DNA of 64,000 nucleotides from assembly GCA_047967505.1 (NCBI GenBank), contig CM106538.1. One strand, given 5' to 3'. Origin of the DNA: Dipteris shenzhenensis (lineage: Eukaryota). This document shows, one piece after another, positions 39-26,692 of this stretch (the stretch's first letter is position 1; each line of letters opens with the position of its first letter). A program made the translations under genes and the position numbers. The notes under the pieces are model-generated. The model was given only the letters and a program-made list of their open reading frames with translations, was not told the DNA's origin and ran no database searches.

Positions 39-450
39 TGTAAGAAATCCTAGATTTACTATACTTAGAAATGTGCTAAGGAACAGAATGGAGACTGAAA
101 TAGTAGAGAACAAGGAATAATTGTATTGCTTGAATGTCTGTAGGGTATCCGTTGTGTCATCCATATAATTTTGCCTCTCTTATATAGAGAGTGAAGAGTC
201 ACACATGAAAAGGTGTGTACTCCAAAGTGTGTGTGCATGAAGAGGTGTGTACCCCTTGTGAAGGGTGTGACCCTTGATGAGAGGGTACATTACAATAGAA
301 ATGTCTCTTCAATAGAGTGTCTCTTGTGCCTCATAGGAAGTGTCCCGTCGAAAGGGCAAGTCGAAAGGGCATACCCTTCCACAAGTGTCCATTCATCAAA
401 CCATCCATAAGTCTAGAAATAGAGAAAGGAATACGTCACAAATCGTGACA
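39..450 (-). repeat. 3' LTR of outer chromovirus
   Basis: Begins TGTAAGAAATCC, ends ATCGTGACA. Adjacent to the PPT. Similar to the other three LTRs. Confidence 0.95.
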
Positions 451-550
451 TCCCCTCCCACTCAAAATAAGACCCTAGTGGAGATAATGAAACCCTAGTG
501 GAGATAATGAATTGATGTAGAAAATATCACTGTAAATTCTAAAAATACTG

Positions 551-1185
551 CTATAAAATGTCAGGGTACTGCTGTAAGTCTTCATCAGATTGCCAAGTAG
601 CGTCGGAATCGTCCAGATCTTGCCAAAGAACAAGGAATTCCGTGATAAGTCGATGTCGAGTCTCTCGCTGTCGATGGTCTAGAATACGCTCAAGAATAAG
701 GAGAACATAATCGTCTTCGATTTTTGGGACATAATCACCTGCAGGAGGAACTACTTCATCGCCTGGAATGTACGTCTTTAGCCAAGAAACATGAAATGTT
801 GGATGGATTTGACCCCATGATGGTGGTAATTTCAATTTGTAACTTAAAGGTGAATTTTTCTTGACGATTCGGAAAGGTCCATAGTATCTTGTTCGCAACT
901 TAGGAAACATAGACTTAACCGTCTTATAGCGATGTGGGGCTACAAATAATAGCACCATGTCACCAGTGTCAAATTCCAGGTGACGTCTATGTTTGTTGGC
1001 AGACCGTTGATACCGCTCTTGCGCTTTTCGCATATGATCCCTGACTTGGAGTAGAATGTTATGCATTTCTTGAACCAGTTGATCAGCTAGGGCCACTCGA
1101 TGTTGAAGTACAAAATTCGTTGGTACAATCGAAGTGTGTCCATAAGCTGCTTGGAATGGAGTCATGCTGATGGCACTATGGAAAG
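551..1185 (-). pseudogene. C-terminal integrase/GPF/chromodomain portion of outer element pol
   Basis: ORF 551-1165 is nearly identical to the C-terminus of the 1542-aa polyprotein ([21 protein letters not shown]). It is cut off from the rest of pol by the nested insertion. Confidence 0.9.
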
Positions 1186-1614
1186 TGTAAGAAATCCTAG
1201 ATTTACTATATTTAGAACTGTGCTAAGGAACAGAAAAGAGACTGAGATAGCAGAGAACAAGGAATAACTGTATTGCTTGAATGTCTGTAGGGTGGATGTG
1301 ATTGTCATCCATACAATTTGGCCTCTCTTATATAGAGAGTGAAGAGTCACACATGAAAAGGTGTGTACTCCAAAGGGTATGTGCATGAAGAGGTGTGTAC
1401 CCCTTGTGAAGGGTGTGACCCTTGATGAGAGGGTACATTACAATAGGAATGTCTCTTCATTAGAATGTCTCTTGTGAAGGGTTATGCCTCATTAGGAAGT
1501 GTCCCATCGAAAGGGCAAGTGTCCCGTCGAAAGGTCATACCCTTCCACAAGTGTCCATTCATTAAACCATCCATAAGTCTAGAAAGAGAAAGGAATACGT
1601 CACAGATCGTGACA
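1186..1614 (-). repeat. 3' LTR of inner chromovirus
   Basis: TG...CA termini, adjacent PPT, near-identical to 8383-8800. Confidence 0.95.
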
Positions 1615-1694
1615 TCCCCTCCCACTCAAAAGAAGACCCTGGTGGAGATAATGAACTGATGTAGAAAATATCATGGTAGATGCTGAAAATACTG

Positions 1695-4600
1695 CTATAA
1701 AAGATCAGGGTACTGCTGTAAGTCTTCATCGGACTGCCAAGTAGCGTCGGAGTCGTCCAGATCTCGCCAAAGAACAAGGAATTCCGTGATAAGTTGATGT
1801 CGAGTCTCTCGCTGTCGATGGTCCAGAATACGCTCAGGAATAAGGAGAACATAATCGTCTTCGATTTCAGGGACATAATCACCTGCAGGAGGAACTGCTT
1901 CATCGCCTGGAATGTACATCTTTAGCCAAGAAATATGAAATGTTGGATGGACTTTACCCCATGATGGTGGTAATTCCAATTTATAACTTAAAGGTGAATT
2001 TTTCTTGACAATCCGGAAAGGTCCATAGTATCTTGGTCGCAACTTAGGAAACACAGACTTAACCGTCTTATAGCGATGTGGGGCTACGAATAATAGCACC
2101 ATGTCACCAGTGTTAAATTCCAGGTGACGTCTATGTTTGTTGGCAGACCGTTGATACCGCTCTTGCGCTTTTCGCATATGATCCCTGACTTGCAGTAGAA
2201 TGTCTTGCATTTCTTGAACCAGTTGATCAGCTAGGGCCACACGATGTTGAAGTACAAAATTTGTTGGTACAATCGGAGTGTGTCCATAGGCTGCTTGGAA
2301 TGGAGTCATGCTGATGGCACTATGGAAAGAGTTATTATAAGCAAACTCGAGGAGTGGTAGATGCTCTTCCCAGGCTGCGAGGCGTGACTGAACATAATGT
2401 CGAAGCATTTCTTCCAGAACTTGGTTGACTCTTTCAGTCTGGCCATCTGATTCTGGGTGGTAAGCTGAACTGAACAGTAGAGTAGTACCCAAAGATTCGA
2501 ACAGTGAAATCCAAAAGTGACTGGTAAACTTAGGATCTCTGTCGGATATGATATTCTTGGGTAATCCATGGTATCGGAAACTGTGTTGTATAAAGAGTTT
2601 GGCTATGTCCGGGGCCTGTGCACTGCTTTTGCAAGCAACAAAGTGTGCCATTTTGGACAAGCGATCAACAATTACCATAATCTGAGTGTTACCTCGGGAA
2701 GATCGTGGTAGTGTTGTAATGAAATCCATGGAAATACTTTCCCACCTTTCAGTTGGAACTGGAAGAGGCTGAAGAAGTCCTGTTGGAAGTCGTCGACTTG
2801 CTTTCATTTGTTGACATGATAAGCAAGATGTAACCATGTTGATGACATCTCTTTTCATCTGAGGCCAGTAGTATGTTGCACTGATTAACCGATAAGTCTT
2901 ATTGATGCCTGGATGGGCAGCATAAGGAACTACATGATGCTCTTTTAACAAAAGACGGCGAACATCCTTGTCATGTGGTACACAGACGCGATCTTGATAA
3001 TACAGAAGGTCGTCCGTATAAGAATAGGATGAGAAAATCTTTTGTTCGGAAGTCGAAGGTTGATCTTTGGAAAGAACCTGTACTGCTGTGCCGAAGTCTT
3101 TATCATTGAAATACTTTCCTTTGAATGAATTCGGAACATCCACAGATAATGTAGAGATTACCATGGCTGATGCTAGAGGTAACCTGCTGAGAGCATCTGC
3201 AACTACATTGCGTAGTCCTGGAATGTACTCAATGGTCATGTGAAAGTTGGCCAGAAACTCAACCCAGCGTGCTTGTCGAGCGTTCATGACTGGCTGAGTA
3301 AAGATATACTTGAGAGAGTGATGGTCTGTCTTGACCACAGAGTCGGCACCCATGAGATAATGTTTCCAAGAGCGATAAGCATGTACAACAGCAAGAAACT
3401 CCTTATCATAGACTGGATATCGGGTTTGGATATCAGAATGTTTATGGCTGTCAAAAGCAATAACTCTGCCTTCTTGCATCAAGACTGCTCCTGTAGCGAT
3501 GTCGGAAGCGTCGGTCATGACCTCAAACGGAAGGTTTGGGTCAGTAATAGCCATAACTGGTGTGGTAGTGAGTGCTTGCTTGAGTTGTTGCAAACTATAC
3601 TCTGTTTCGGGAAGCCACTGAAAAATTGCTGTGCTTTTCAATAATTCGGACATAGGAGCTGCGATTTCGGAAAATTGATAGACCTTTGTATGGTAGAAGT
3701 TTGCCAATCCGAGAAAAGAGCGGACATCATGAACATTCTTAGGAGTAGGCCAGTTTCGGATTACCTCGACCTTCTTGGGATCCACAGAGATACCTTGAGC
3801 GGAAATAACATGTCCCAAATATTCAAGTTGGGTCTTGAAGAACTCACTCTTCTCAATGTTGATGTAGAGAGAATTTGTGCGGAGAACTTCAAAAACTTGG
3901 TGAAGATGTTGTTTGTGCTCATGTAGGGATCTGCTGAAAACGAGGATGTCATCGAGGTAAACGATGACGAACTTATCGAGGAAAGGCCTGAAGATGTCGT
4001 TCATTAATGTCATGAATGTGGCCGGGGCATTGTTTAACCCAAAAGACATGACCAAACATTCATAGTGTCCATACTTTGTTCGAAAAGCTGTCTTGTACTC
4101 ATCGCCTTCTCGTATACGAATTTGATGATAACCTGAACGAAGATCAATCTTGGAGAAGTGTGTTGCATGTAGAAGTTGATCGAAAAGGTCATCAATGCGA
4201 GGCAATGGATACTTGTTTTTGATAGTGAGCTTGTTGAGGGCTCGGTAGTCGATGCAGAGGCGCATAGACTTGTTCTTTTTTTCCACAAGTAGTACAGGAG
4301 ATCCGAAAGGGCTGCGACTGGGCCGAATGTGACCTTTGTCAAGTAGCTCGGTGACCTGTCTTTGGATTTCTTCATTTTGAGTGTGAGAAACCCGATAAGG
4401 AGGCTTCGACGGTGGATTACTGCCGGGAATAAGTTCGATTGGGTGATCCATTGGTCGTCGAGGTGGCAACTGCTTTGGCAATTCCTGTGGAAAAAGGTCT
4501 AGGTAGGGCTGGAAAAAAGGTTGGTTGAGGTATTCAGGAGGACCCTTAGCTGGTGTCTCCTCTACTGTCGTAACCAACAGAAGTGAAGTCTTTGCTTGGC

Positions 4601-6323
4601 GTTTACGAACCCACTTCTTTACTTGTAGGGCAGAGGCAACTGGGGTTGAAGGAGAGTCCCTAGAACCAGTTAGCTCAATAAGTTTTCCCTGGTGGACAAA
4701 CTGGATAGTATGGCTGCGAAAACTGATTGATGGATCATAGTCGTAGAGCCATTGTTGTCCGAGTATGACATCGTACCGAGAAAGAGGCATAATGTCGAAG
4801 TTCAACTTGTCGGTATAATGTTGGATGCGAAAAGACAAGTTTTTGATCGTGGTGTTGCCCAAGAAAGTTGTTCCATTTGCGAGTTCAATTTGATAGTCCA
4901 TGAGGCTAGGACTGGTGGTCAACCGAAGTTTATCGACCACAGAACTGGCTAGGAAATTATGAGAACAGCCACTGTCGATGAGGATGGTGATCGTTGTTCC
5001 ACGAATCGATCCTTGAACACAAAGTACTTGAGTGGCCAGGGAAGGTTCGGGGTTGCTGGCAAGGCTCAGGTGGATGGTATTCGCCATTCGAACAGCTTTG
5101 CCTTTCTTGTCTTGTGCTGAGGTAGCATCTTCTTTTGGGGAAGTGCTAGGTTCCATATTAGAATTTTGCTTTGGTCGCTTGGGACAATCGAACCATCTAT
5201 GGTCGCCTGTACAGATGGTACAAAGTTCTTTTGAGCTGGAGTTGTTCTTCTTGTCAGTGGCCGCACCTTTATGTTGGGGATGTCGGTAATGACTTTGTGA
5301 AGAAGAAGAAGCGCGATCCTTGGGAGAGTGCTTCTGTTGGAATCCAGCAAATGATTTCTGAGGCTTCTGGGGATCTTGAGACTGTCGCTGACCTTGATTA
5401 CCGAAGTTTTTTCGAAACCTGGTGTTATCTTGAGGGCGAGCACCTTTGGCCATAGGAGAGTTTTGTGTGCGATTAGCACTCTGCTTCCCTGTGTTTAGGA
5501 AATCTGTAATGCGCTCTGCGTAAGCAATAGCGCCATCTGTGGTGGTGATGTTTGCTTTAAGAACATCAATGCGTAATGACGGATGTAGGCCTGAGATGAA
5601 AGCATGAAGGCGATCATCCTCAGTTAAACCATCAATCTCCAGCACCAATGTGGTGAACTGAGAGATATAGGAAGACAGGGAACCCGTTTGCTCCAACTGT
5701 CGGAGTTTTGACCGTGCTTGGAAGTCCACATTGGCAGGTACAAACTGCTTACGGAGCACGTGTTCAAAACGTTCCCATGTTAACACACTTTTTCTGTCCT
5801 TTAAGCGTCTTTGCCACCATAGAAATGCTGTATCCTTCAGGAGGGAGGCTGCCAAGGCGATCTTTTTGCCTTCCGTGAGGTCAACAGTGTCAAAATACAT
5901 GCGCATTTTAGCGAGCCATTGGTCAACTGTTCGGCGATTTCGTTGACCAGTGTAGGCTTCCGGAAGTTTGACGTCAAGTCGTTTTGTTTTGGAAGCTTGA
6001 AGTAATCGGTAGAGAGCACGCAGTTCAGTGTTTTCTACCTCTGGTGGGAAAGAGTCCGCATTGTCGTCGGGTTGCGTCACGTCGTCCTCTGTATGTGCTG
6101 GACTTCGAGAATCTTGGAGTTGTTGAACTTTTTGAACCAGGTCGGAGATGCTGTCCTGAAGCTGAGATATTTGAAGTTGTAATAGAGATTCACTGTGGAC
6201 ATTGCCTTCAGGGGTCTTTTTGGGACTTGATTCTTTAATCTCGGGAGAGGCTTCACGCGAGCGGTGTGACATGTTGGAAATCCCTGTGAGAAAAGCGCGA
6301 ACTTGCGCTCTAGTTTGTACCAT
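1695..6323 (-). CDS. Gag-Pol polyprotein (gag, Zn knuckle, aspartic protease, RT, RNase H, integrase, chromodomain)
   Basis: 1542-aa ORF with [13 protein letters not shown] knuckle, [10 protein letters not shown] protease, YLDD RT, TDASD RNase H, H..H..CLSC integrase Zn finger, [19 protein letters not shown] core, YYGPF and a C-terminal chromodomain. Confidence 0.97.
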
Positions 6324-6954
6324 CCCTGAAAGAGGATTCGGGCTGCTCCCTGAGGTTGCTCATATTGGAGGGGGCAGGCGAGGTAGGATGGAACCACCCG
6401 TGGAAATCTGGTAAGGGAGGTCCTGTCGGAGGTAACACTGGAGATTCTGAAAAAGGTGTTACTGCTCGTGATAAGACAGGGGTAGGTAGCAGAGTCCACG
6501 GATCTGAAAAAGGGTAAGGAGCTGCTGTCGGAAGAGGAGGATATCTAGGAGAGGGAGTGCCTTCAGAATGTAAATACTGACTTGGAGAAGGTACAACCTG
6601 TAGAGGAGGATATCGGGGAGCTGAAGGAGGTGGAGAGTACCCTGGGGATGCCGAAGGTGAAGGGTAAAACTCTCTCCAAAAATGAACAGCAAATTCCTGA
6701 GGAATATCGTGTTCCGGATATCTTCGTGTCTCGTGGAACACAACCTGTACTGTGCTGAGGAAATAATGTAACTGAGGTGCCTCACGCAGAAGGTAGAGGA
6801 TGTGATCCAAGTCACTCGGAGGGCACGTGACACAGAAGACCCAAGATGCAAAGGCTCCAAAATGGGCTGGCTGTGCAATTTGAACACGATATTGTGTAGT
6901 AGCAGGTGCCTGAGGTGTCCTTGAATGGCCGGGTGAATTACCAGGGGTTTCCAT
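6310..6954 (-). CDS. Additional 214-aa ORF upstream of gag, unknown function (conserved N-terminal domain + Pro-rich tail)
   Basis: Same length and position in the second copy (12769-13413). Residues 19-80 are identical between copies despite about 16 nucleotide substitutions, all synonymous. Confidence 0.8.
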
Positions 6955-7379
6955 GCCTTAATGTGGATTCTTTCATTTGCTGTAATTTGTTAAAGAGAAT
7001 CCGTAAAAAGCAGATTGGAAAGACTCCACCTGGCAATACTTTAATCTGCCAAGTGATTGCGTAGAAGAAGGCTGCAAATCGTTGTCCGGAGGTCCATGTT
7101 GCAGTGTTTTGCGAGGAGTGCTCGAGGCTTATCTGGTCCGGCTGTCAACGGGCTGTCTTCATCGCGAGAATAGTTGCAACTGGTGCTGAAATTGCAGGGT
7201 AAAAATGGCGAAACAAGGAGAGGGCAGCAGGCTGTCAGGAAAAGGCAGGTTTCCAGGGCTGCAATGGCAAGGCCAGGGCTGCAAATAGCGAGGGGGGCTG
7301 TCAGCGAAAGTGGCGAAACAGTGACTGGCAGCGCAGGGAACAGGGGCTGGCAGCGCAGGCTGATGAAGATCTGCGCTGA

Positions 7380-7675
7380 CCGTACGGCTTGTACGGTGCA
7401 GGCTGGCTGACCGTACGGCTGTACGGTACAGGCTGTACGGCCTGTACGGCAGGCTGGCTGGAGTACCGTACGGACTGTACGGTTGAATTTTGCAGGCAGA
7501 AAATGACGAGGAAAGGCGCAGGCTGGTGGCTGGCTGCGCAGGTGGGTACCGAAGGATGGCGCAAGGCTGTACGGCTGCTGCGCAGAAGGGTACGGAAGAG
7601 ATGGCGCAAGGCTGTACGGCTGCTGCGCAGGCTGTACGGAAGAGATGGCGCAGGAGGGTACGGAAGTCCGTACAG
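7380..7675. repeat. Degenerate tandem array of GCTGTACGG-type units in the inner element leader
   Basis: About 17 GTAC cores, about 14 of them as GTACGG/CCGTAC, in ~300 bp. Confidence 0.85.
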
Positions 7676-8369
7676 ATTTTGTCTTGCGTTGAAAGAGAAG
7701 GTGCGACTTTTCGCTAGGGCTGCCAAAAGGGTTAGTTGCCCCAAAAATTTAAATGGGGGTTTAGTTTAACCCTAGGGTAGTTAGGGTAAACCTAGGGGTA
7801 GGGGATGGGTTTAATTTTTGTCCCTTTTTACCCCTCTAGGTACCCTTTTGTAGGTACTTGGGGCCTAGGAGGTGTGCCTATTCGAAGGGGTGTGACCCTT
7901 GGAATAGGTGCACCTGTTCATGAGGGGATATGTCCCTATTGTTAAAAGGGGTGCGACCCAGCATGAATAGGTATGTCCCTTTGCCCACGATGGGGTATGT
8001 CCCATGAGTGAGGAGTCGAGACTCGTCACCAAAAGGTGTGTCCCATGGTGGAGCTAACTGGTTCTAGGGACTCTCCTTCAACCCCAGTTGCCTCTGTCCT
8101 ACAAGTAAAGAAGGCGTGTCCCTTGGTTTTGGGACAGCCCAAGCACCTGAAAGGACACGATTTTGGTCGTGTCCATTCACATCAACTTGTGATGTGAGGG
8201 AGATGGAGAGGCCAGGATGACTTTAGGCCGGGTAGGCGTTTAAAAATTTTACGCTCATCCTCTCCATCTCTTCCATGCACAATGTGCACGGACGTCCTTC
8301 TAGCGGCAAAAATGTATCAGATCAGCGCTAGAAGGTGGGGGGCATTTCCTACAGGCAGGAGCGAATTTT

Positions 8370-8381
8370 GCTCTGATACCA
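8370..8381 (-). promoter_or_regulatory. Primer-binding site (tRNA-iMet) of inner element
   Basis: GCTCTGATACCA on +, i.e. TGGTATCAGAGC, next to the LTR edge at 8383. Confidence 0.95.
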
Positions 8382-8382
8382 C

Positions 8383-8800
8383 TGTAAGAAATCCTAGATT
8401 TACTATATTTAGAACTGTGCTAAGGAATAGAAAAGATACTGAGATAGCAGAGAACAAGGAATAACTGTATTGCTTGAATGTCTGTAGGGTGGATGTGATT
8501 GTCATCCATACAATTTGGCCTCTCTTATATAGAGAGTGAAGAGTCACACATGAAAAGGTGTGTACTCCAAAGGGTATGGTGTGTACCCCTTGTGAAGGGT
8601 GTGACCCTTGATGAGAGGGTACATTACAATAGGAATGTCTCTTCATTAGAATGTCTCTTGTGAAGGGTTATGCCTCATTAGGAAGTGTCCCGTCGAAAGG
8701 GCAAGTGTCCCGTCGAAAGGTCATACCCTTCCACAATTGTCCATTCATTAAACCATCCATAAGTCTAGAAAGAGAAAGGAATACGTCACAGATCGTGACA
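8383..8800 (-). repeat. 5' LTR of inner chromovirus
   Basis: Differs from 1186-1614 by about 4 substitutions and one 11-bp deletion (by eye). Confidence 0.95.
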
Positions 8801-8805
8801 GAAAG

Positions 8806-11800
8806 AGTTATTATAAGCAAACTCAAGGAGTGGTAGATACTCTTCCCAAGCTGCTAGGCGTGACTGAATATAATGTCGAAGCATTTCTTCCAGAACTTGG
8901 TTGACTCTTTTAGTCTGGCCATCTGATTCTGGGTGGTAGGCTGAACTGAACAGTAAAGTTGTGCCCAAAGATTCGAACAGTGAAATCCAAAAGTGACTGG
9001 TAAACTTAGGATCTCTGTCGGATATGATATTCTTGGGCAATCCATGGTGTCGGAAGATGTGTTGTATGAAGAGTTTGGCTATGTCCGGAGCCTGTGCACT
9101 GCTTTTGCAAGCAACAAAGTGTGCCATTTTGGACAATCGATCAACAATTACCATAATCTGAGTGTTACCTCTGGAGGATCGTGGTAGTGTTGTAATGAAA
9201 TCCATGGAAATACTTTCCCACCTTCCAGTTGGAACTGGAAGAGGCTAAAGAAGTCCTGTTGGAAGTCGTCGGCTTGCTTTCATTTGTTGACAAGAAAAGC
9301 AAGATGTAACCATTTTGATGACGTCACTTTTCATCTGAGGCTAGTAGTATGTTGCACTGAGTAACCTACAAGTCTTGTTGATGCCTGGATGGGCAGCATA
9401 AGGAACTACATGATGCTCTTTTAACAAAAGACGTCGAACATCCTTGTCATGTGGTACACAGACGCGATCTTGATAATACAGAAGGTCGTCTGTATAAGAA
9501 TAGGATGATAAAATCTTCTGTTCGGAAGTCGAAGGTTGATCTTTTGAAAGAACTTGTACTGCTATGCCGAAGTCTTTATCATTGAAGTACTTCCCTTTGA
9601 ATGAATTCGGAACATTCACAGATAATGTAGAGATTACCATAGCTGATGCTAGAGGTAACCTGCTGAGAGCATCTGCAACTACATTGCGTAGTCCTGGAAT
9701 GTACTCAATGGTCATGTGAAAGTTGGCCAGAAACTCAACCCAGCGTGCTTGTCGAGCGTTCATGACTGGCTGAGTAAAGATATACTTTAAAGAGTGATGG
9801 TTTGTCTTGACCACAGAGTCGGCTCCCATGAGATAATGTTTCCAAGAGCGATAAGCATGTACAACAGCAAGAAACTCCTTATCATAAACCGGGTATCGGG
9901 TTTGGATGTCAGAATGTTTATGGCTGTCAAAAGCAATAACTCTGCCTTCTTGTATCAAGACTGCTCCTGTAGCGATGTCGGAAGCGTCGGTCATGACCTC
10001 AAATGGAAGGTTTGGGTCAGCAATAGCCATAACTGGTGTGGTGAGTGCTTGCTCGAGTTGTTGGAAACTATACTCTGTTTCGGGAAGCCACTGAAAAACT
10101 GCTGTGCTTTTCAATAATTCGGACATAGGAGCTGCGATTTCGGAAAACTGATAGACCTTGGTATAGTAGAAGTTTGCCAATCCGAGAAAAGAGCGGACAT
10201 CATGAACATTCTTAGGAGTAGGCTAGTTTCGGATTACCTTGACCTTCTTGGGATCCACAGAGATGCCTTGAGCTGAAATAACATGTTCCAAATATTCGAG
10301 TTGGGTTTTGAAGAACTCACTCTTCTCAATGTTGATGTAGAGAGAATTTGCGCGGAGAACTTCAAAAACTTGGTGAAGATGTTGTTTGTGCTCATGTAGG
10401 GATCTGCTGAAAACGAGGATGTCATCGAGGTAAACGATGACGAACTTATCGAGGAAAGGCCTGAAGATGTCGTTCATTAGTGTCATGAATGTGGCCGGGG
10501 CATTGTTTAACCCAAAGGGCATGACCAAACATTCATAGTGTCCATACTTTGTTCGAAAAGCTGTCTTGTACTCATCGCCTTCTCGTATGTGAATTTGATG
10601 ATAACCTGAACGAAGATCAATCTTTGAGAATTGTGTTGCATGTAGAAGTTGATCGAAGAGGTTACGATGCGAGGCAATGGATACTTGTTTTTGATAGTGA
10701 GCTTGTTGAGGGATCGGTAGTCGATGCAGAGGCGCATTGACTTATTCTTTTTTTCCACAAGTAGTACAGGAGATCCGAAAGGGCTGCGACTGGGCAGAAT
10801 GTGACCTTTGTCGAGTAGTTCGGTGACCTATCTTTGGATTTCTTCATTTTGAGTGTAAGAAACCCGATAAGGAGGTTTCGACGGTGGATTATTGCCGGGA
10901 ATAAGTTCGATTGGGTGATCCACTGGTCGTCGAGGTGGTAACTGCTTTGGCAATTCCTGTGGAAAAATATCCAGGTAAGGCTGGAAAAAAGGTTGGTTGA
11001 GGTATTCAGGAGGATCCTTTGTTGGTGTCCTGTCGACTGCTGTAACCAATAGAAGTGAAGTCTTTACTTGACGTTTACGAACCCACTTCTTTACTTGTAG
11101 GGCAGAGGCAACTGGGGTTGAAGGAGAGTCCTTAGAACGAGTTAGCTCAATAAGTTTTCCCTGGTGGACAAACTGGATAGTATGGCTGCGAAAACTGATT
11201 GATGGATCATAGTCGTAGAGCCACTGTTGTCCGAGTATGACATCGTACCGAGAAAGAGGCATGATGTCGAAGTTCAACTTGTCCGTATAATGTTGGATGC
11301 GAAAAGACAAGTTTTTGATCGCGGTGTTGCACAAGAAAGTAGTTCCATTTGCGAGTTCAATCTGATAGTCCATGAGACTAGGACTGGTGGTCAACCGAAG
11401 TTTGTCGACCATAGAACTAGCTAGGAAGTTATGAGAGCAGCCATTGTCAATGAGGATAGTGACCGTTGTTCCACGAATCGATCCTTGAAAACAAAGTACT
11501 TGAGTGGCCAGGGAAGGTTCGGGGTTGCTGGCAAGGCTTAGGTGGATGGTATTTGCCATTCGAACAGCTTTGCCTTTCTTGTCTTGTGCTGGGGTAGCAT
11601 CTTCTATTTGAGAAGTGCTAGGTTGCATATTGGAATTTTGCTTTGGTCGCTTGGGACAATCGAACCATCTATGGTCGCCTATACAGATGGTACAAAGTCC
11701 TTTTGTGCTGGAGTTGTTCTTCTTGTCAGTGGCCGCACCTTTATGTTGGGGATGTCGGTAATGACTTTGTGAAGAAGAAGAGGCACGATCCTTGGAGGAG

Positions 11801-12782
11801 TGCTTCTATTGGAATCCAGCATATGATATCTGAGTCTTCGGGGGATCTTGAGACTGTCGTTGGAGTTTTTTTGAAACCTGGTGTTATCTTGAGGGCGAGC
11901 ACCTTTGGCCATAGTAGAGTTCTGTGTGCGATTAGCACTCTGCTTCCTTGTGTTTTGGAAATCTGTAATGCGCTCTGCGTAAGCAATAGCGCCAGCTGTG
12001 GTGGTGATGTTTGCTTTAAGGACATCAATGCGTAACGAGGGATTTAGGCCTGAGATGAAAGCATGAAGGCGATCATCCTCAGTTAAACCATCAATCTCCA
12101 GCACCAATGTGGTGAACTGAGAGATGTAGGAAGACAGGGAGCCCGTTTGCTCCAACTGTCGGAGTTTTGAACGTGCTTGGAAGTCTGCATTGGCAGGTAT
12201 GAACTGCTTATGGAGCACGTGTTCAAAACGTTCCCATGTTAACACACTTTTGTCGTCCTTTAAGCGTCTTTGCCACCATAGAAAAGCTGTATCCTTGAGG
12301 AGGGAGGCTGCCAAGGCGATCTTTTTGCCTTCAGTGAGGTCAACAGTATCAAAATACATGCGCATTTTTGCGAGCCATTGGCCAACTGTTCGGCGATTGC
12401 GTTGACCAATGTAGGCTTCTGGAAGTTTGATGTCAAGTCTTTTAGTTTTAGAAGCTTGAAGTAAACGGTAGAGGGCACGTAGTTTAGTGTTTTCTATCTC
12501 TGGCGGGAATGAATCCGCATAGTCGTCTGGTTGCGTCACGTCATCCTCTGTATGTGTGGTACTGCGAGAATCTTGAAGTTGTTGAACTTTCTGGACCAAG
12601 TCGGAGATGCTGTCGTGAAGCTGGGAAATTTGAAGTTGCAGTAGTGTTTCGCCTTGTACGTTGACTTCAGGGGTCTTTTTTGGACTTGAGTCTTCGATCT
12701 CTGGAGAGGTTTCACGCGAGCGTTGCGACATATCGGAGATCCCTGTGAGAAAAGTGCGAACTTGCGCTCTAGTTTGTACCAT
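8806..12782 (-). pseudogene. Degenerate gag-pol of outer chromovirus
   Basis: Fragment ORFs (11679-12782, 10828-11628, 10223-10528, 9341-10180, 8786-9205) are colinear with the intact polyprotein but broken by stops and frameshifts. Confidence 0.93.
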
Positions 12783-13413
12783 TCCTGGAAGAAGATTCGA
12801 GCTGCTCCCTGAGGTTGCTCATGTTGGGGGGGGCAGGCGAGGCAGGATGGAACCACCCGTGGAAGTCTGGTAAAGGAGGTCCTGTCTGGGGTAACACTGG
12901 TGATGCCGAAAGTGGTGTTACTGCTCGTGAGAGGACAGGAGTAGGTTGCAGAGTCCACGGATCTGAGAAGGGATAAGGAGCTGCTGTTGGAAGTGGAGGA
13001 TATCCAGGAGAAGGAGTGCCTTTGGAGTGTAAATACTGTCTTGGGGAAGATACAACCTGTATAGGAGGATATCTGGGAGCTGAAGGAGGTGGAGAGTACC
13101 CTGGAGATGCTGAAGGTGAGGGGTAAAATTCTCTCCAAAGATGGACAGCAAACTCTTGAGGAATATCGGGTTGTGGGTATCTTCGTGTCTCGTGGAACAC
13201 AACCTGGACTGTGCTGAGGAAGTAATGTAATTGAGGTGCCTCACGCAGAAGATATAGGATGTGGTCCAAATCACTAGGAGGGCACGTGACACAGAAGACC
13301 CACGATGCAAAAGCTCCGAAATGGGCTGGTTGTGCAATCTGAACACGATATTGTGTGGTAGATGATGCGTGAGGTGTCCTTGAAATGCCGGGTGAATTAC
13401 CAGGGGTTTCCAT
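12769..13413 (-). CDS. Additional 214-aa upstream ORF, outer copy
   Basis: Intact paralog of 6310-6954 with the same 14-nt overlap with the gag ATG. Confidence 0.75.
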   Translation of the reverse strand: METPGNSPGISRTPHASSTTQYRVQIAQPAHFGAFASWVFCVTCPPSDLDHILYLLREAPQLHYFLSTVQVVFHETRRYPQPDIPQEFAVHLWREFYPSPSASPGYSPPPSAPRYPPIQVVSSPRQYLHSKGTPSPGYPPLPTAAPYPFSDPWTLQPTPVLSRAVTPLSASPVLPQTGPPLPDFHGWFHPASPAPPNMSNLREQLESSSRNGTN

Positions 13414-13804
13414 GCTTTAAGGAAACGTCTTTCATTTGCTGTAATTTGATAATGACAAGAGAATCCTTAGAAGTAGAATGGAAAGACTCCACCTGGCAAT
13501 GATTTAATCTGCCAAATTGTTGCGTAGAAGAGGCCTGCAGATTTCTGTCCGGAGGTCCATGTTGCAATGGGTGGCGAGGAGCAGATCTGGGCCTGGCATT
13601 TAATAGGCTGTCTTCATCGCGATAGGAGGCTGAAACTGCTGCTGATCTGGCAGGAAAAAGGTAGCGAACCAAGGAGAGCAGGCTATCAATGGCGCAAACT
13701 GGTTGCAGGCTGATTTGCGACAGAATGGCTGGCTGGCGCTGTGCTCACGCTGCAGGCTGGCAAGGAACAGGGCCGAAAAACCAGCGGGGCTGCAAATGGC
13801 AAGG

Positions 13805-13965
13805 TGGCTGGCAGCGAAATGGCGAGGCAGGGCTGGCAGCGAAATGGCGCAAACAGGGGCTGGCAGCGAGATGGCGCAAACAGGGCTGGCAGCGAAATGG
13901 CGCAAGCAGGGCTGGCAGCGAGCAGGGGCTGGCAGCGAGATGGCGCAAGCAGGGGCTGGCTGCGA
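13805..13965. repeat. Tandem array of ~26-bp GGGCTGGCAGCGARATGGCGCAARCA units in the outer element leader
   Basis: About 5-6 imperfect copies directly visible. Confidence 0.85.
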
Positions 13966-14632
13966 AACCAACCTGATTTGATGAAAAACCTGTAGGCGTT
14001 GAAAAGGTACGTCCCTTTTTTTTTTTGGTTTGGGCTGCCTACATGTAGTGGTTGCCCAAAAATTAAAGGGTGGGTTTAGGGTAACCCTAAGGTAGCTAGG
14101 GTAACCCTAAGGTTGGGGGCTGGGTTTTCCATTTTAACCACTCTAGGTACCCTTTTATAAGTGCTTGGTGCCTAAAAGGTGTGCCTATTCGAAGGGGTGT
14201 GACCCTTGGAATAGGTGCACCTTTTCATGAAGGGGTGTGTCCCTGTTTTTAAAAGGGGTGTCCCTACATGAATAGGTGTGTCCTTTTGTCCACGATGGGG
14301 TGTATCCCTTGGGTGAGGAGTCGTGACTCTTCATCAAAAGGTGTGTCCGATGGTGGAAAATGTGCGTCCCTTGGTTTTAGGACAGGCCAAGCACCTGAAA
14401 AGACACGATTTTTGTCGTGTCCATTCACATCAACTCGTGATGTGTGGGAGATGGAGAGGCCATAGATGACTTTAGGCAGGGTTGGCGCGAAAAATTTTTA
14501 CGCTCATCCTCTCCATCTCTTCCATGCACAATGTGCACGGATATCCTTCTAGTGGAAAAGATGTATCAGATCGGCGCTAGAAGGTGGGGGGCATTTCCTT
14601 ACAGTGGCATCAGAGCAAAATTCGCTCCTACC

Positions 14633-15079
14633 TGTAGAAATCCTAGATTTACTATATTTAGAAATGTGCTAAGGAACAGAAAGGAGACTGAAATAGCAGA
14701 GAACAAGGAATAATTGTATTGCTTGAATGTCTGTAGGGTATCCGTTGTGTCATCCATAGAATTGGGCCTCTCTTATATAGAGAGTGAAGAGTCACACATG
14801 AAAAGGTGTGTACTCCAAAGTGTGTGTGCATGAAGAGGTGTGTACCCCTTGTGAAGGGTGTGACCCTTGATGAGAGGGTACATTACAATAGAAATGTCTC
14901 TTCAATAGAGTGTCTCTTGTGAAGGGTTGTGCCTCATAGGAAGTGTCGCGTCGAAAGGGCAAGGGTTGTGCCTCATAGGAAGTGTCCCGTCGAAAGGGCA
15001 TACCCTTCCACAAGTGTCCATTCATCAAAGCATCCATAAGTCTAGAAATAGAGAAAGGAATACGTCACAGATCGTGACA
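14633..15079 (-). repeat. 5' LTR of outer chromovirus
   Basis: Homologous to 39-450, contains an internal duplication, and is followed by TSD AGCGA. Confidence 0.93.
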
Positions 15080-19481: not shown

Positions 19482-21933
19482 AATTTGTGGCAAGGTACTC
19501 CAATGGTTGATGCCTCAGTTCAGCCTATGGTTGATCCAGTCAATCAGCAAGGGATTGAAGATGCAGTGGCACGTGAAAGTACAGCTATGCAGGAAGGAAA
19601 GACAGTTCCTCTTTGCTGCTCTGCTGTAACAATAGTGAAATGTAGGTTTGTTGACAGCTAGATAATAGGCTCTGTTAGCCAATTAAGAGCCCTACTAATT
19701 GTAGTTGCTGTAGTATTTTTCTTGTATTTTTGTTTTCAGGATTGATTGTTGGCTTGCCACATGGCAAACCTATTGTATTATCCCATAAGCAATGGTGTGC
19801 TGGTCCACATTTCTGAATCTATATAAGGGGCTTCAGCTGTACTTTCAGATTCATTCAAATCTAATGCAAGTACTGTTAGAGGTCAACATCTCCTGATGTC
19901 ACCTAGAGAGAGGGGCCCCTGCTTGTCGGTGTGCCCACCCAATGAGTGAGGCTAGTATAGCTGAGTGAGGGCCCGTGGGTATGCCCGTCCCTGTGAGAGT
20001 AGGACTGTGGCCAGTGCGCTTTGCTGGTCCATGTGTTGCCACGATGGCCATGGAGGTTCCAGGGAGGGGTTTGGGGTTGTATGGGCAGATCTGCCCTGTT
20101 GTGCTGCCACAGGTCTGCCCTTATAGGTGCCTCCTATGGGCCGTATATGAGGGCTGTGGAGCAGGGGGTGGGCTGACCTGCAGTTCGGCCACCTTGGCTA
20201 TTGGCAGCCTCCCATAGGCTGGGGGATGAGCCCCCTTTATATGGCTGTGTGCAGCCCTAGTGGTGGGTCTGCCCGCCTAGGCTGGTCAGCCCTGCATGAG
20301 GAGGTTGGCCCCCTTCTAGATCAGCCAACTAGGCAGGGGGGCTGCCTATAAATATAGGCCCCCCTTTCTCCTCTATGTCCATCACTTGGAGCAGGTGTGT
20401 GGAGCAGTACTTCGCACTCTAGAGTGCAGCAGTTGAGCACCTCTTGTACCTCTCTTGTGCATTGCCGTGGAACCTAGACTGAACACAACAACCTCACCTC
20501 ATGAGCTATCTTTACATCAAGTCACTCCAAAAGCACTTTGAGCTTATAGGGTTGATCTTTACCTTACTCTTTCAAACTGTGTACCCCAGAAACCACTTTT
20601 CTTGGAACTAATGAACAATTGATGCTCCTTCAACAAGTTGAGCACAATTTTCAGATGCCTCTTGTGCTCTTTCTCACCTTTGCTGAAAAATATACTGTTA
20701 GGAAAGATCTATGTGCTTGGAAGATGCAACTTACCAGTTGATTTAAAATGACTGGAGCTTTGCTTAACCCAAATGAGACCTCGAAATACTCAGAAAGACT
20801 AGTGCTGTCCAAAAATGCAGCTTTGTGTATGTCTTGTCATACTATTCTCATTTGACAATAACAAATCTTATGGTCTAATTTTAGCCCCTATCAAGGTGTC
20901 CAATGTCTCACCAATTCACGGAATCGGGAATCTATTCTTTAGTCATCTTGTTCAAAGCTTTTTAATCCAACTAAAGGTCACCTCCTCCAGTGAGAGAAGC
21001 ACGGGCAAACAAAACAGCGATCAACGTAGTCAGATTAAACCTCGCTCAAGCAATTCTTAAACTTGGCTTTGAATTTTTTTCTATTGTAGCTTACTTGCTC
21101 TATAAGGAGGTCGATAAAGTACGTCTCTGCTTAGAAAGCTAGACTATCCCCCAAGTGAACTCTTGTTGGATGCGCCTCACTCGCAGAAGGATCTTGAGTG
21201 CCAGAGCCCTTGTTGTGAAGGGCAATTCCATAAGTATTGGTTATAGGGTTCATTGTCCCACGTGTAAGCCCCCAACGAGGAGAGCACAGGACCTGTGTAG
21301 AATGGGGGAAAGCGAGCTCGGGTGAAGCCCCACGCAATGAGATTTTCCTAGAGGGCTGCTGCTGATGGACTATGGGCCATGCCACCTGGATTTTGAGTCA
21401 CTCTTAATATCCTTTTATATCCTATTGTTGAATTTTTTAAATAATGTAATGTTTGAACAATGTTTGTGCTTGCAACCTGAGATTGGGGAACTTCTATTTG
21501 TGCCCCTTTTTATAAAAGGGCTCGATCTTGTTACCTCATCTAAATATAGTGTCGATTTGTGAATTGAAAACCATATTTATAATGTATCTTTCACTTGTCT
21601 TTGTATCCCAATGATAGATGCTAGCCTGTAGAAAATCATAATCTTTTTCTTCGCATTTATCCAATTCATTTTCTGACAGGTGACGTGGCATTGTGGACAC
21701 GCATGTGCGTGTGAATATGTGTCATAGTGAACTGTACGGAGCAGCGGGAAAGCTCTCCGTACAGTTTCTTCCTGCTGTTCCGTACAGCCTATCCCGCGCA
21801 GGCCTTCCGTACAGCCTCTCCGTACAGCTTCTGCCGTACTGTTTTTGCACCTTCTCCCGGTGCCTTTCCGTACAGTTACTCTGTCTGCTTTGTCTTTCGC
21901 TCTATTTCTTCCTTGCTTTGCCATATCTCAATC

Positions 21934-23143
21934 ATGGCTTCAGGTTCAGATGTCTGTACATATGCTAGAAAAGAAAGATCTGCAGATGCCAAGCGTCGTC
22001 CTTCTCAGCCTGCATCTCAGGATGATGAGCTTACTATGGAAGCTCAATATGTGTTTGATACACTCAAGGATGACTTTCAGCAGTCACGACAGGAATGGGG
22101 CAAACCAGTTCCGGAGGTCACATACAAATTGAAATTGCCCTCCCTTGTGAATCCCCTCAGGAAGCTATCTCAAACCACGGTAATTATTTTCTTTCCAGGA
22201 AGTCCCAGCCGCTAGTGATGTTGCGCAATGGATCAAGTCTATCCTTGGAGGATGTTTTGTAGAGGGTGTATATTTTGCCTCCAGAGGCTTTTATGAGGTG
22301 CATTTATCAGATGCTTTGTGCAAGCAGAGGCTCCTTGAGCTTTCTCCCCTCTTTTATGGGAAGCAGAGGGTACATGCCATGCCTTGGTCCCCAAACAAGG
22401 ACTACCAAAGTCTTATACGTCATCATTGTCCTGTATGGGTTGAGATTGTTAACTTCCCGGACTATATGCATGAAGAATTGCTTGGCCTGGCCGCTTCATT
22501 GGGACAGGTCATTTGCCCTCCACGCCCCATGGGAAATCGTAACAGATTTTGCATCCTCTGGGACACTGACATACCTAACCCTCCTTCTATTGCAGTGGAA
22601 GTTGAGGGTGTGCAATTGGGGAAAAAGTTTTTTGACTTGAAATGGGGTGTATTTGCAGGTGCTTGCTTTGCCTGCCACAAGTTTGGGCATCTAGCCTCTG
22701 AATGCCCAATGGTTCTGCATCAACCCCCTCCTAATGCCTTGCCACCTCTGACAAGGGAAAAGAATGAGAATTTGCAAGCCAAGGCAGCAAATCGAAATGA
22801 AGCAAAGAATGCTAAACCAGTTAATCAGGTGCAATCACTTGTTGGAAAAGGGAAAGAAAAAGAAAAAGAGAAGATGAAGGAATCTGTGGGGACAGATCGG
22901 GATGGGTTTCAACAGCCTAAGAAGGTGGTTGTATTGAAGCAACGCCCCTTTCAATCTCGGCAATGGGATGCTTCCTCTCCTTTACCAGGACAGGCTTCTA
23001 CTTCAGCTCCTGTCCTTCAAAATTGGGTGGGGGTTTTGAAGAAGGGTATCCCCATATGTGATTCTGAAGAAGGGGAGAATGCCATATCTTTTATGGATCA
23101 TGAAAGCCTGCAACCCATGCAGGCAGAGGCTTTGCCTCTCTGA
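21934..23143 (+). pseudogene. LINE ORF1 (DUF4283-like region + CCHC zinc knuckle), frameshifted near 22200
   Basis: ATG at 21934. PVWVEIVNFP motif and CFACHKFGHLASEC knuckle in ORF 22298-23143. Confidence 0.85.
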
Positions 23144-23839
23144 TATCTTGTTTCATATTTACATTTATATATCTCTTTTATGCATCAAACACTTAAGTGC
23201 TTTACATACAATGTACAGAGCCTCTGCAATGTCTCAAAGTGGAGGCTTTTCTGGAATTATGTACATAAAATGCAGCCAGATATTGTTTGTTTGCAAGAGC
23301 ATAATCAACACTCTAAGGCTGGTCATCATGATCACTTTGGCGGCTATGATATTTATTATGCTGGTACCACTACCTATTCAGGTGTATGCATAATGGTCAG
23401 ACATGAGCTGGAGCCTCAGTTAGCATTCAATGACAGCAGTGGCCGACGGATAGTCATACAATGTAATGTCAACGGTGACATTCTTGAGCTTGCATCAGTT
23501 TATGCCTCCCAGACCTCTGCCGTGAGGGCTTCTCTATGGGAATCTTTAAGCAAATATCCATGGAGATCAAATGCCTTTATCTGTGGAGATTTTAACAATT
23601 CTCCTCTGCTGAGAGATAACACCACTTCAAGATCTCATATGCTTTATCGGAAAGACAGAAATGGGATAGCATGCTTCTCTCTGTGCAGGCTGAAGATTTA
23701 TGGCTGCTTCTACAAGGGTCAGTGCCCGGATATACTTTCCATCATAATGCATGTACCACATACTGGGCAAGGCTTGACAGATGGTATCTGTTCTATCCAC
23801 AACAATATGCAGATTTTAGCCTTCATCTCCAAATTCTTC

Positions 23840-24059
23840 TTGTGCCCACTCCAGTAGTGGCTGTAAGAGCACTTAGCTCATACAGGTTGTTTCTCCTTAA
23901 TCCTGTGCCAACAAGATTGCCAGCACTATCCATAGTTTTTGCTCTTGTCTTGTTGAACCTCACCTCATGGTTAAGGTCAGTTGTGGAAGCAACTGATTGC
24001 AAATTTCTCTTGATTTGTGGAACATACAGCACATTAGATAGTTTCAGTAATATGTGCAA
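23840..24059 (-). pseudogene. Ty1/copia pol fragment inverted inside the LINE
   Basis: LSNVLYVPQIKRNLQSVA...GLRRNNLYEL resembles the copia region between protease and integrase. Confidence 0.75.
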
Positions 24060-24762: not shown

Positions 24763-26692
24763 TTGTATGGATTAGCAGCGGGATTGCATATCAACTTTGA
24801 CAAATCCAAATTACTTCCCCTGAAACAATGTGACTGGCATTCTATTCTCTGGCTTGGTCAGATAGTGCATTCCAAAGATGTTGTCAGGCATTTGGGATAT
24901 CCTATAGGATGGCATATCACTAGGAAGCAGCAGCTAAAATGGATCTTCCAAAGACTTCAAACAACATAAATTGGAATATTGGAAAATTTCTACTTGGCCA
25001 CTTCATGTCAGGCTCAGAATAGTCCAGTCTATTGTAATGTCTTATGTTCAGTTCTTCTTGCCTTTACTACATTGGTCCTCTAGAGATATCTCAGCTTTTA
25101 TGTCTCAAGCTATGGAGCTGTTATGGAAGACAAAAACTGCTGTGAAAGCATTGAGACTGATGAAGATGGAAATGGTGTGCTCCCCTAGGATGCATGGAGG
25201 ACTTAATGTTCTAAATATCAGATATCATGTACTTGCAAGGAAGGCGACTATGCTCCATACTTTTTTCCGTCAAAAACAGCCATGGACTTGTATGATAGCA
25301 TCCATGTGTGTCAACATGAGGACAAATGCTTATGGCCATTGGACTATTGATCATTGGGAGGTTGTCATTGGGAGATTTGTAGGGAAGATTCCTGGATGCC
25401 CTTTCTCTACTGCTCTGATACTGGACTGTAAACAAGTGCTTTCTAAAGTCAAATGGGCTCCTGATAATCATTCGGGGACAAACTCAATGAGGAAAGAAAG
25501 TATTCATTGGAGTGCCATCTTTGCCACTCCACTTGCTTCACAGGAACCGGTTAGGGCATACAATCTCATGAAATTGGGAATCAGATACATCAATGACGTG
25601 GTAGATGATCATGGTCATGTGTTATCTTTTCCTCAGGCCACTGCCACTTATGCATTGGGAATGCATCACAGATTGATATGGAAGAAAATTGCTGATCTCT
25701 GCACCCTTTTCTACCTATTCCCCCTGTGGCTGACACAGATAGGCTTATGGAATGGCAATTGTATCCCTCTGCTACATGCTCTCGTCCTATTCCTCTGCCT
25801 GTTTTGACCTCCATCAAAGTCTACAAGCTTCTTCAGCCTGCCCCTTGGATTCATCAATATGCTAATACTCTATGGCATATCAGGCGGCCCCTTTCATGGT
25901 GGCGGAAAAATCTCCGACTAATATGGAGGTGTAAAATGCCTTTGAAACAAAGACTTTTTCTTTGGAGATGCATGACCGGCACACTGTCAGTGGGAATAAC
26001 ACTTGCCAAACGTCACATTGCTTCACCCACTTGCTTACGGTGTCACGCTCCTTCAGAGACTGTCCCTCATTTGCTTTGGCATTGCCAGTCTACTCGGAAC
26101 CTCCTGGGGAAAATTTCGGATCATCTTCGCCTCCGTTTCCCGAGTCACATATATTTGGAAAACACTTTTGGTTATTTGGCAGATTTAGGATGCCTTTATC
26201 TCAATACTCACTCTTTTTCTCATGGGTGAGATATTGGGCTCTTTGGACAATTTGGGAAGAGCATAACCTGGCATACTTGGGCCGTCAGTTTCAAAAGTCA
26301 TATGAATCTTTTAGAGCCTCATCGCGGCAATCTTTATATGATGCCTGCCATGAGGGTGATATACATGCATCTTGCATTGAGCTTTTCTTTTTATGTTTCT
26401 GATCTGTAGAATACTCTCCATCTTGGAGACTTTCCCTCTTGTAAAGTTATGACAATATAAATACACTGCACTGGATTTTACTTTAAAAAAAAAAGAATAT
26501 GTGTCATAGTGGGAACTGATGATGTAGTGCTTGTTATATATCATGGGGTTCATAATTGGTGACCGTGTGGATGACTTATCGTGAAATTATAACTGCACTA
26601 TTTGTTTTTCTTCTATATGGGATAGGTCTGGTTATGGTTGTAGATTTGTCGGGATATACATATTTTGTCTGACAGGTTGAATGCCTTTATAG

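Follow-up and report, generated by a model that had tools for sequence, protein, structure and literature searches.

We found a 214-residue open reading frame (ORF) upstream of gag in a chromovirus of Dipteris shenzhenensis, and the pattern of its substitutions showed that it has been under purifying selection. The window, the whole stretch of 64,000 nucleotides of contig CM106538.1 (assembly GCA_047967505.1) that was analysed, contained in its first 15 kb, on the minus strand, two copies of the same Ty3/gypsy chromovirus family, one nested inside the other. Both copies contained this ORF, here called ORF0, in the sense orientation between the primer-binding site and leader on one side and gag on the other, which is the position of a 5' additional ORF (5' aORF). 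From the comparison of the two copies, ORF0 is probably a translated, element-encoded 5' aORF protein of a plant chromovirus, which was kept by selection during the divergence of two sub-lineages. Such retention would mean that the element needs the amino-acid sequence of ORF0, above all that of residues 19–97. Extra 5' ORFs are already known in chromoviruses; the ORF0 protein itself is new, as judged from our searches. Also new are a clean test of selection, a clearly bounded domain, and a body poor in AUGs that is combined with an overlapping upstream ORF (uORF) of conserved length.

Selection on ORF0

The inner and the outer ORF0 were collinear, without insertions or deletions, and differed at 67 of 645 nucleotides and at 21 amino acids. 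The nucleotide differences were found at the first, second and third codon positions in 15, 7 and 45 cases, respectively (binomial P = 1.6e-8). Over residues 19–80 the two proteins were identical and exactly 16 codons differed, all of them synonymously and at the third position. An earlier note on this DNA, made from the sequence, had counted about 16 such differences and had placed a 214-residue sense ORF 5' of gag in both copies; both statements hold.

The ratio of nonsynonymous to synonymous substitution rates (dN/dS) was estimated from the inner/outer pair by three methods, and the ranges given here span the methods. It was 0.13–0.19 for the whole of ORF0, 0.03–0.05 for residues 19–97 and 0.20–0.27 for the tail (residues 98–214), and codons 1–306 of gag gave 0.17–0.22 at a dS similar to that of ORF0. 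The synonymous sites of residues 19–97 had diverged by 0.35–0.55 over 79 codons. Purifying selection on ORF0 is about as strong as that on gag. The earlier claim of such selection was borne out in this two-copy comparison, where the ratio was not near 1. The two alternative frames of the same stretch gave dN/dS of 1.1–4.5, contained 2–5 stops and differed at 51 and 56 amino acids, in line with the many altered residues that had been noted for an overlapping frame. In 20,000 random re-placements of the 67 substitutions of ORF0, amino-acid changes averaged 42.9, no run gave 21 or fewer, and 90% of the runs introduced a stop. The block of conservation begins at the start codon of ORF0 and ends at the ORF boundary. 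The inner/outer alignment contained no gap column within ORF0, 39 mismatches in 191 positions and 14 gap columns in the 200 nucleotides upstream, and 232 mismatches in 990 positions and 270 gap columns in the rest of the leader.

Cis-acting signals are frequent in the 5' regions of retroelement RNAs, and the stretch could be non-coding and conserved as such an RNA signal, for example for packaging or dimerisation, the ORF then being incidental. RNA structure makes no three-nucleotide periodicity, however, whereas two-thirds of the differences (45/67) lie at third positions and nine in ten random placements of them yield a stop. Rfam gave no match anywhere in the window. The codon-position pattern, the dN/dS values and the re-placement test leave this explanation close to refuted.

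It is also very unlikely that ORF0 is only a translated upstream ORF throttling gag-pol, in which the act of translation counts and not the product. In favour of this, ORF0 precedes gag-pol on one RNA, begins in a strong start context and runs into the gag start, but an ORF with a regulatory role alone would not keep dN/dS as low as 0.03–0.05 over 79 codons at this synonymous divergence. Conserved-peptide uORFs are short, are conserved at their C-terminal end and stall ribosomes. ORF0 shows the opposite: it has 214 codons, its conservation peaks in the N-terminal domain (residues 19–97) and is weakest in the C-terminal half, the last 117 residues being looser.

ORF0 was intact in both full copies (2/2) within the window. 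In the outer gag-pol, which covers about 4.6 kb, we found 6 in-frame stops and at least 2 changes of frame. The observation that ORF0 stays open in this broken copy stands, at 214 residues, whereas its use as evidence does not, since such a density of disruption leaves a stretch of 645 nucleotides untouched with a chance of about 1/3.

Four public sequencing runs (X1–X4; three under one organism label and one labelled 'algae metagenome') contained short contigs with 80–100% identity to the region. The runs gave 242, 35, 21 and 5 contig pieces, and the longest contig was 456 nucleotides. The variant figures that follow rest on 40 of 149 variant rows. ORF0 contained 18 variants, of which 13 were at the third position and 12 were synonymous; gag likewise contained 18, with 13 at the third position and 13 synonymous. 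All 18 variant letters in ORF0 were those of the outer copy, which indicates that both ORF0 variants are multi-copy sub-lineages, and the substitutions therefore arose while the lineages transposed and not as decay after insertion. No indel was found within 5700–6954 among these rows, and the three indels among them (7005, 7139 and 7174) were all in the leader.

One contig of run X1 skips exactly 72 nucleotides (24 codons, in frame) at 6750–6823, inside the conserved domain. Its depth is 6.5 and its shorter side has 25 letters, which is weak support; it may represent a deletion variant of ORF0.

Host element and start-codon layout

The inner element was found to be structurally intact, with a single gag-pol (Table 1). 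Its two long terminal repeats (LTRs) differed by 4 mismatches over 418 aligned positions and by one 11-bp indel, which corresponds to an identity of 99% and a divergence of about 1%. The primer-binding site is presumably of the tRNA-Met type. A tRNA-Met primer is used by most chromoviruses (Neumann et al., PMC6317226). The inner gag-pol contained the Pfam domains Retrotrans_gag, Ty3_capsid, protease, RVT_1 (E = 3.5e-39), RNase H (RT_RNaseH, 1.6e-30), integrase (rve, 8.9e-8) and Chromo (6.1e-10, residues 1495–1541), a Ty3/gypsy domain order with a C-terminal chromodomain that makes the element a chromovirus. On inspection by eye, the chromodomain retains an F-L-V-x-W box. The chromodomain motifs of Galadriel-like and Tekay-like elements have been described (Novikov et al., PMC3350952), and the box looks closer to the Galadriel-like than to the Tekay-like motif, which is a lead. 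The outer copy spans about 39–15059; the inner element was inserted into its integrase-coding region, and the outer pol resumes at 554–1186. Elsewhere in the window, the gene for a PLS-class pentatricopeptide-repeat protein (Table 1) identifies the host as a land plant.

Table 1. Positions of the features found in the 64,000-nucleotide window
Feature	Position	Strand	Basis
ORF0, 214 aa, additional ORF upstream of gag-pol	6310..6954	(-)	ORF list, copy comparison, selection tests
Outer-copy ORF0, 214 aa, 90% protein identity to inner	12769..13413	(-)	Copy comparison
ORF0 residues 19–97, conserved predicted folded domain (beta-beta-alpha-beta-beta)	6664..6900	(-)	dN/dS 0.03–0.05, models
ORF0 residues 98–214, Pro/Ser-rich tail, predicted disordered	6313..6663	(-)	dN/dS 0.20–0.27, models, composition
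Inner chromovirus LTR retrotransposon, structurally intact	1186..8800	(-)	LTRs, target-site duplication, primer-binding site, polypurine tract, single gag-pol
5' LTR, 418 bp, TG..CA	8383..8800	(-)	Alignment to 3' LTR
3' LTR, 429 bp	1186..1614	(-)	Alignment to 5' LTR
Polypurine tract GAGTGGGAGGGGA, preceding the 3' LTR	1615-1627	(-)	
Target-site duplication CTTTC, 5 bp, flanking the inner element	1181-1185 and 8801-8805		
Primer-binding site TGGTATCAGAGC, separated from the 5' LTR by one base	8370..8381	(-)	Read from sequence
gag-pol polyprotein ORF, 1542 aa, uninterrupted	1695..6323	(-)	ORF list and Pfam
Outer copy, upstream part: 5' LTR (~14632-15059), leader, ORF0, broken gag-pol (remainder of the copy ~39-1185)	8801..15059	(-)	
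Leader, 13 ATGs (outer copy 17), tandem-repeat arrays, highly divergent between copies	6955..8369	(-)	
12-codon uORF, ATG 22 nt upstream and stop 14 nt downstream of the ORF0 ATG	6938..6976	(-)	
Stretch poor in AUGs between the start codons of ORF0 and gag	6324..6951	(-)	1 ATG in 628 nt
ORF0/gag-pol overlap, 14 nt: ORF0 end ..AAC TAG, gag start ATG GTA..	6310..6323	(-)	
Ty1/copia element ORF, 1054 aa: gag, zinc knuckle, integrase, part of RVT_2	46893-50057		
Intron-less single-exon PLS-class pentatricopeptide-repeat protein, 747 aa, E motif	53541-55784		
LINE-like (long interspersed nuclear element) ORFs with DUF4283, endonuclease/exonuclease/phosphatase domain, and an ORF with a ubiquilin-1-like domain	22298-23857 and 26665-27507		
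Degenerate pieces of other Ty3/gypsy pol genes, distant relatives with 24–43% identity to the chromovirus pol	20571-21113, 38323-39840, 58551-59455		

The uORF that spans the start of ORF0 was found in the outer copy (13397–13435) with the same length and position and a different peptide, and its start context was CAAATGA in both copies. The AUG of ORF0 is in a good context (G at -3 and G at +4), and so is that of gag, which lies in the +1 frame relative to ORF0. The only ATG between the two starts is at 6363, in the ORF0 frame and 40 nucleotides before the gag ATG, and the outer copy has the same. Codon shuffles, base shuffles and synonymous resampling gave 4.2–6.7 expected ATGs for this stretch (P = 0.001–0.01), and the first 631 nucleotides of gag contained 9.

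Close to ORF0 on its upstream side, the leader contained two further short uORFs (7097–7162, and 13560–13617 in the outer copy), one of 5 and one of 18 codons, whose length and order were kept. Its tandem-repeat arrays (7317–7652 and 13806–13965) had periods of 22–44 nucleotides and were rich in CCGTACAGCC-like units. The arrays differed between the copies in unit and length and formed the most divergent part of the element, with 36–38% mismatches and many gaps. Both strands are open across the array, with ORFs at 7301..7744 (-) and 7389..7769 (+).

Provided that ORF0 is translated, it is about an even question whether the full-length RNA serves both cistrons, with sorting by the uORF. Ribosomes that bypass the short overlapping uORF would start at the ORF0 AUG. 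Those that translate the uORF would end beyond the ORF0 AUG, resume scanning through the AUG-poor body of ORF0 and start at the gag AUG, and some leaky scanning may contribute to the gag starts. Comparable layouts are known from viruses. ORFs I–III of rice tungro bacilliform virus (RTBV) and the badnaviruses are reached by leaky scanning through about 900 nucleotides of AUG-free ORFs, and in ORF35/36 from Kaposi's sarcoma-associated herpesvirus (KSHV) and rev/env of simian immunodeficiency virus (SIV) a short uORF overlapping the start of the first long ORF brings about 'ribosomal sorting' (Pooggin and Ryabova, PMC5902531). The chromovirus shares with these a uORF-rich leader, a nearly AUG-free first ORF and a uORF spanning its start, and as in the polycistronic viral layouts the next ORF begins at the first AUG of another frame. 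Unlike ORFs I and II of RTBV, which have weak or non-AUG starts, ORF0 has a strong start context. The likeness to the viruses is one of layout only.

The same junction could join the two ORFs in one product, ORF0 forming an N-terminal extension of Gag(-Pol) through a programmed +1 frameshift or RNA processing, to give a matrix/linker-capsid polyprotein. ORF0 ends 14 nucleotides inside gag, whose +1 frame stays open over the 12 codons that precede its ATG, and the joining would fall in the 36 nucleotides from the last gag-frame stop to the ORF0 stop. In this interval CUC AGG G is kept in both copies, although it is only loosely similar to the Ty1 site, and the order of a domain, a Pro-rich linker with PSAP/YPxL and a capsid resembles that of retroviral Gag. 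However, gag has its own ATG in good context in both copies and a full N-terminal region before the capsid match (residues 118–284). No recognised +1 shift heptamer was found at the junction, and the outer copy has UCC AGG A in place of the UUC AGG G beside the ATG. A hairpin 12 nucleotides after the gag AUG did not reach significance (z = -1.09), and it does not persist in the outer copy. The depletion of AUGs in ORF0 is predicted by scanning to an independent gag start and not by fusion. We consider a fused product unlikely.

Predicted protein and search for relatives

The AlphaFold models were made from the single sequence. The whole ORF0 protein gave a mean predicted local distance difference test score (pLDDT) of 49.7, and residues 17–100 modelled alone (84 residues) gave a pLDDT of 64.8 and a predicted template modelling score of 0.53. 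Both models contained two beta-hairpins with a helix between them over residues 20–94, followed by a tail with pLDDT below 50. A beta-beta-alpha-beta-beta domain is predicted from them at modest to low confidence, and the compact domain with a disordered Pro/Ser-rich tail proposed in the earlier note agrees with both models at this confidence. The tail was found to contain 27% proline and 15% serine; ORF0 thus has the biased composition, the long predicted disorder and the lack of a Pfam domain that mark 5' aORFs. The motifs PSAP (residue 110), YPPL (115 and 138) and PPLP (139 and 179) were present in the tail, and PPxY was absent. The inner ORF0 contained no lysine and 11 arginines and the outer ORF0 one lysine, against 6.1% lysine in gag-pol; at the gag-pol frequency the absence has P = 1.4e-6. 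By inspection, no arginine cluster was seen beyond the RR at 77–78, and so the nuclear-localisation trait of described 5' aORFs was not found.

The segments of retroviral Gag that hold the late domains (p6, p12 and p9) carry P(T/S)AP and YPxL motifs. Like them, ORF0 has a Pro-rich stretch, predicted to be disordered, with PSAP and YPPL just upstream of the capsid-coding region; unlike them, it lies in a separate frame and lacks PPxY, and its motifs are chance-expected. Composition and analogy weakly suggest an adaptor, in which the folded domain would hold a component of the element and the lysine-free Pro-rich tail would offer PSAP, YPPL and PPLP to factors of the host; this is a tentative guess. 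The roles in anti-silencing, particle assembly or targeting that the earlier note had suggested are likewise speculative. It is much less probable still that ORF0 is a separate counterpart of the retroviral matrix/late-domain region. Its domain would then dock on Gag or RNA, and its tail would recruit endosomal sorting complexes (ESCRT) or WW or SH3 domain proteins without being ubiquitylated itself, with its dose relative to Gag-Pol set by the uORF switch.

No relative of ORF0 was found in the sequence searches. Neither ORF0 copy matched a Pfam family at E <= 1, and no PDB sequence matched at E <= 10. The word-index protein searches at near, longer and shorter lengths, the ESM Atlas, and the locus scans of metagenome and viral contigs gave no relative or usable match. 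Within the window, including the other Ty3/gypsy fragments, no further ORF0-like sequence was found. A HMMER scan of 1.84 billion representative proteins left no relative after its sole match (P0001; E = 6.4e-7 over 9 stretches) was rejected, each single alignment being weak, with 25% identity and a pairwise E of 1e-4. P0001 has 675 residues and is made of about ten (9–10) near-identical repeats of 66 residues. It also matches 21 unrelated Pfam families, mostly without any stretch that passes alone, which points to scores inflated by the repeats, and it is a useful warning on repeat-driven E-values. A degenerate pattern of a 9-residue motif gave 2 loci in metagenome contigs; both were 9-mers matched by chance in another frame of unrelated genes, and neither had a gag-pol nearby.

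Foldseek with the 84-residue model gave no match in the PDB at E <= 0.001. In the wide, Foldseek-independent search with VIA-align the best match was a de novo designed protein (Z = 6.8, root-mean-square deviation 1.9 over 58 residues), followed by T4 Dmd (Z = 5.3). The best Z is below the noise guide of 7–8 given for VIA-align, and no fold is therefore assigned. No match to a described domain survived in the Pfam, PDB-sequence, HMMER, Foldseek and VIA-align searches, in keeping with the earlier note, in which the ORF was not recognised. The databases also failed to return the window's own protein, so Dipteris shenzhenensis is probably absent from them, and the negative result holds for organisms outside the close kin of the host.

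The conserved domain could have been a piece of a host gene, transduced by the ancestor of the family and carried with or without use. LTR retrotransposons are documented to capture genes, mostly in sense orientation, and the transduced genes are present in one or a few copies (PMC7264820), and the predicted folded domain does sit between a non-coding leader and gag. ORF0, however, occurs in two diverged multi-copy sub-lineages, and strong constraint on it persisted through transposition. No cellular homologue was found among the 1.84 billion representatives, in the word-index searches or in the window, the plant being probably absent from the databases. A captured origin appears unlikely; as it concerns origin, it is compatible with a translated ORF0 protein kept by selection.

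Relation to known additional ORFs

The statement of the earlier note that chromoviruses usually encode only gag-pol is outdated. In chromoviruses of the Tekay clade, 5' aORFs are a described feature, for example in Arabidopsis, and that of sunflower Tekay group 2 has 402 residues, 15.9% proline and 92.5% predicted disorder and was found in 500 of 523 copies (PMC11728184). The same paper compares the 5' aORFs of rice RIRE3, RIRE8A/B and Retrosat-2, of O. brachyantha FRetro3, and of maize and sorghum elements; they have no mutual amino-acid similarity and share compositional bias and predicted nuclear localisation. More widely, reviews place extra ORFs on either side of gag-pol, mostly without known domains (PMC7264820, PMC9289625). 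The REXdb survey of Neumann et al. (2019) counted extra ORFs (eORFs) of at least 250 codons only (PMC6317226), so that an ORF of 214 codons such as ORF0 would be missed.

ORF0 was set beside the described 5' aORFs by their descriptions. Like those of the Tekay clade (sunflower Tekay 13-2, RIRE3/RIRE8/Retrosat-2, maize Tekay and sorghum Sb7), it is a sense ORF between leader and gag of an element with a chromodomain. It is also Pro-rich, with long predicted disorder and no Pfam domain, and the Tekay ones are described as conserved within a family. It differs in being about half the size of the sunflower one (214 against 402 residues), in having a compact predicted beta/alpha domain with very low dN/dS where Tekay 5' aORFs have isolated helices, and in lacking lysine and any basic cluster, whereas the described 5' aORFs are all predicted to be nuclear, with basic localisation signals. 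Plant Ty3/gypsy elements of the Ogre/Tat lineage, too, have an additional ORF in sense orientation 5' of gag, and these upstream eORFs carry a plant mobile domain (PMD) or a transposase-28 (Tr28) domain (PMC4408406). Unlike these non-chromoviruses, the present element has a chromodomain, and its ORF0 matched neither PMD nor transposase-28 in Pfam at E <= 1.

Several observations count against ORF0 being a translated protein kept by selection, or against parts of that account. Two full-length copies were compared (n = 2), and ORF0 is known here as a DNA sequence only. The read data are not independent of the inner/outer test, as the variants match the outer copy, and their contigs of at most 456 nucleotides are shorter than ORF0 and speak to parts of it per copy only. 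No relative outside its own family was found, and the searches leave the depth of conservation undefined. The fold model, from a single sequence, is weak at a pLDDT of 64.8. PSAP, YPPL and PPLP are short and are expected by chance because the tail is 27% proline, and the outer copy has YPPI in place of YPPL-115. With the A-poor codon positions taken into account, the expected number of lysines is 3.3 and their absence is only marginal (P = 0.035). With regard to translation, the strong context of the ORF0 AUG would make plain leaky scanning inefficient, and the 13–17 upstream ATGs of the leader leave the arrival of ribosomes at ORF0 unexplained.

Additional ORFs are widespread in plant LTR retrotransposons, and no 5' one has an assigned function. 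ORF0 is an unusually clean case, in which a young intact element together with a diverged second sub-lineage allows a direct test of selection. Its start-codon layout gives a specific, testable prediction for the reading of two cistrons from one retroelement RNA, by a uORF-sorting switch of a kind described to date in herpes-, lenti- and pararetroviruses. If the matrix/late-domain counterpart were true, a chromovirus would gain a trafficking or particle-release function that is not ascribed to LTR retrotransposons. The finding alone leaves the current picture of retrotransposon biology unchanged; were the host not a seed plant, or the element not a member of the Tekay clade, 5' aORFs would be known from a wider range.

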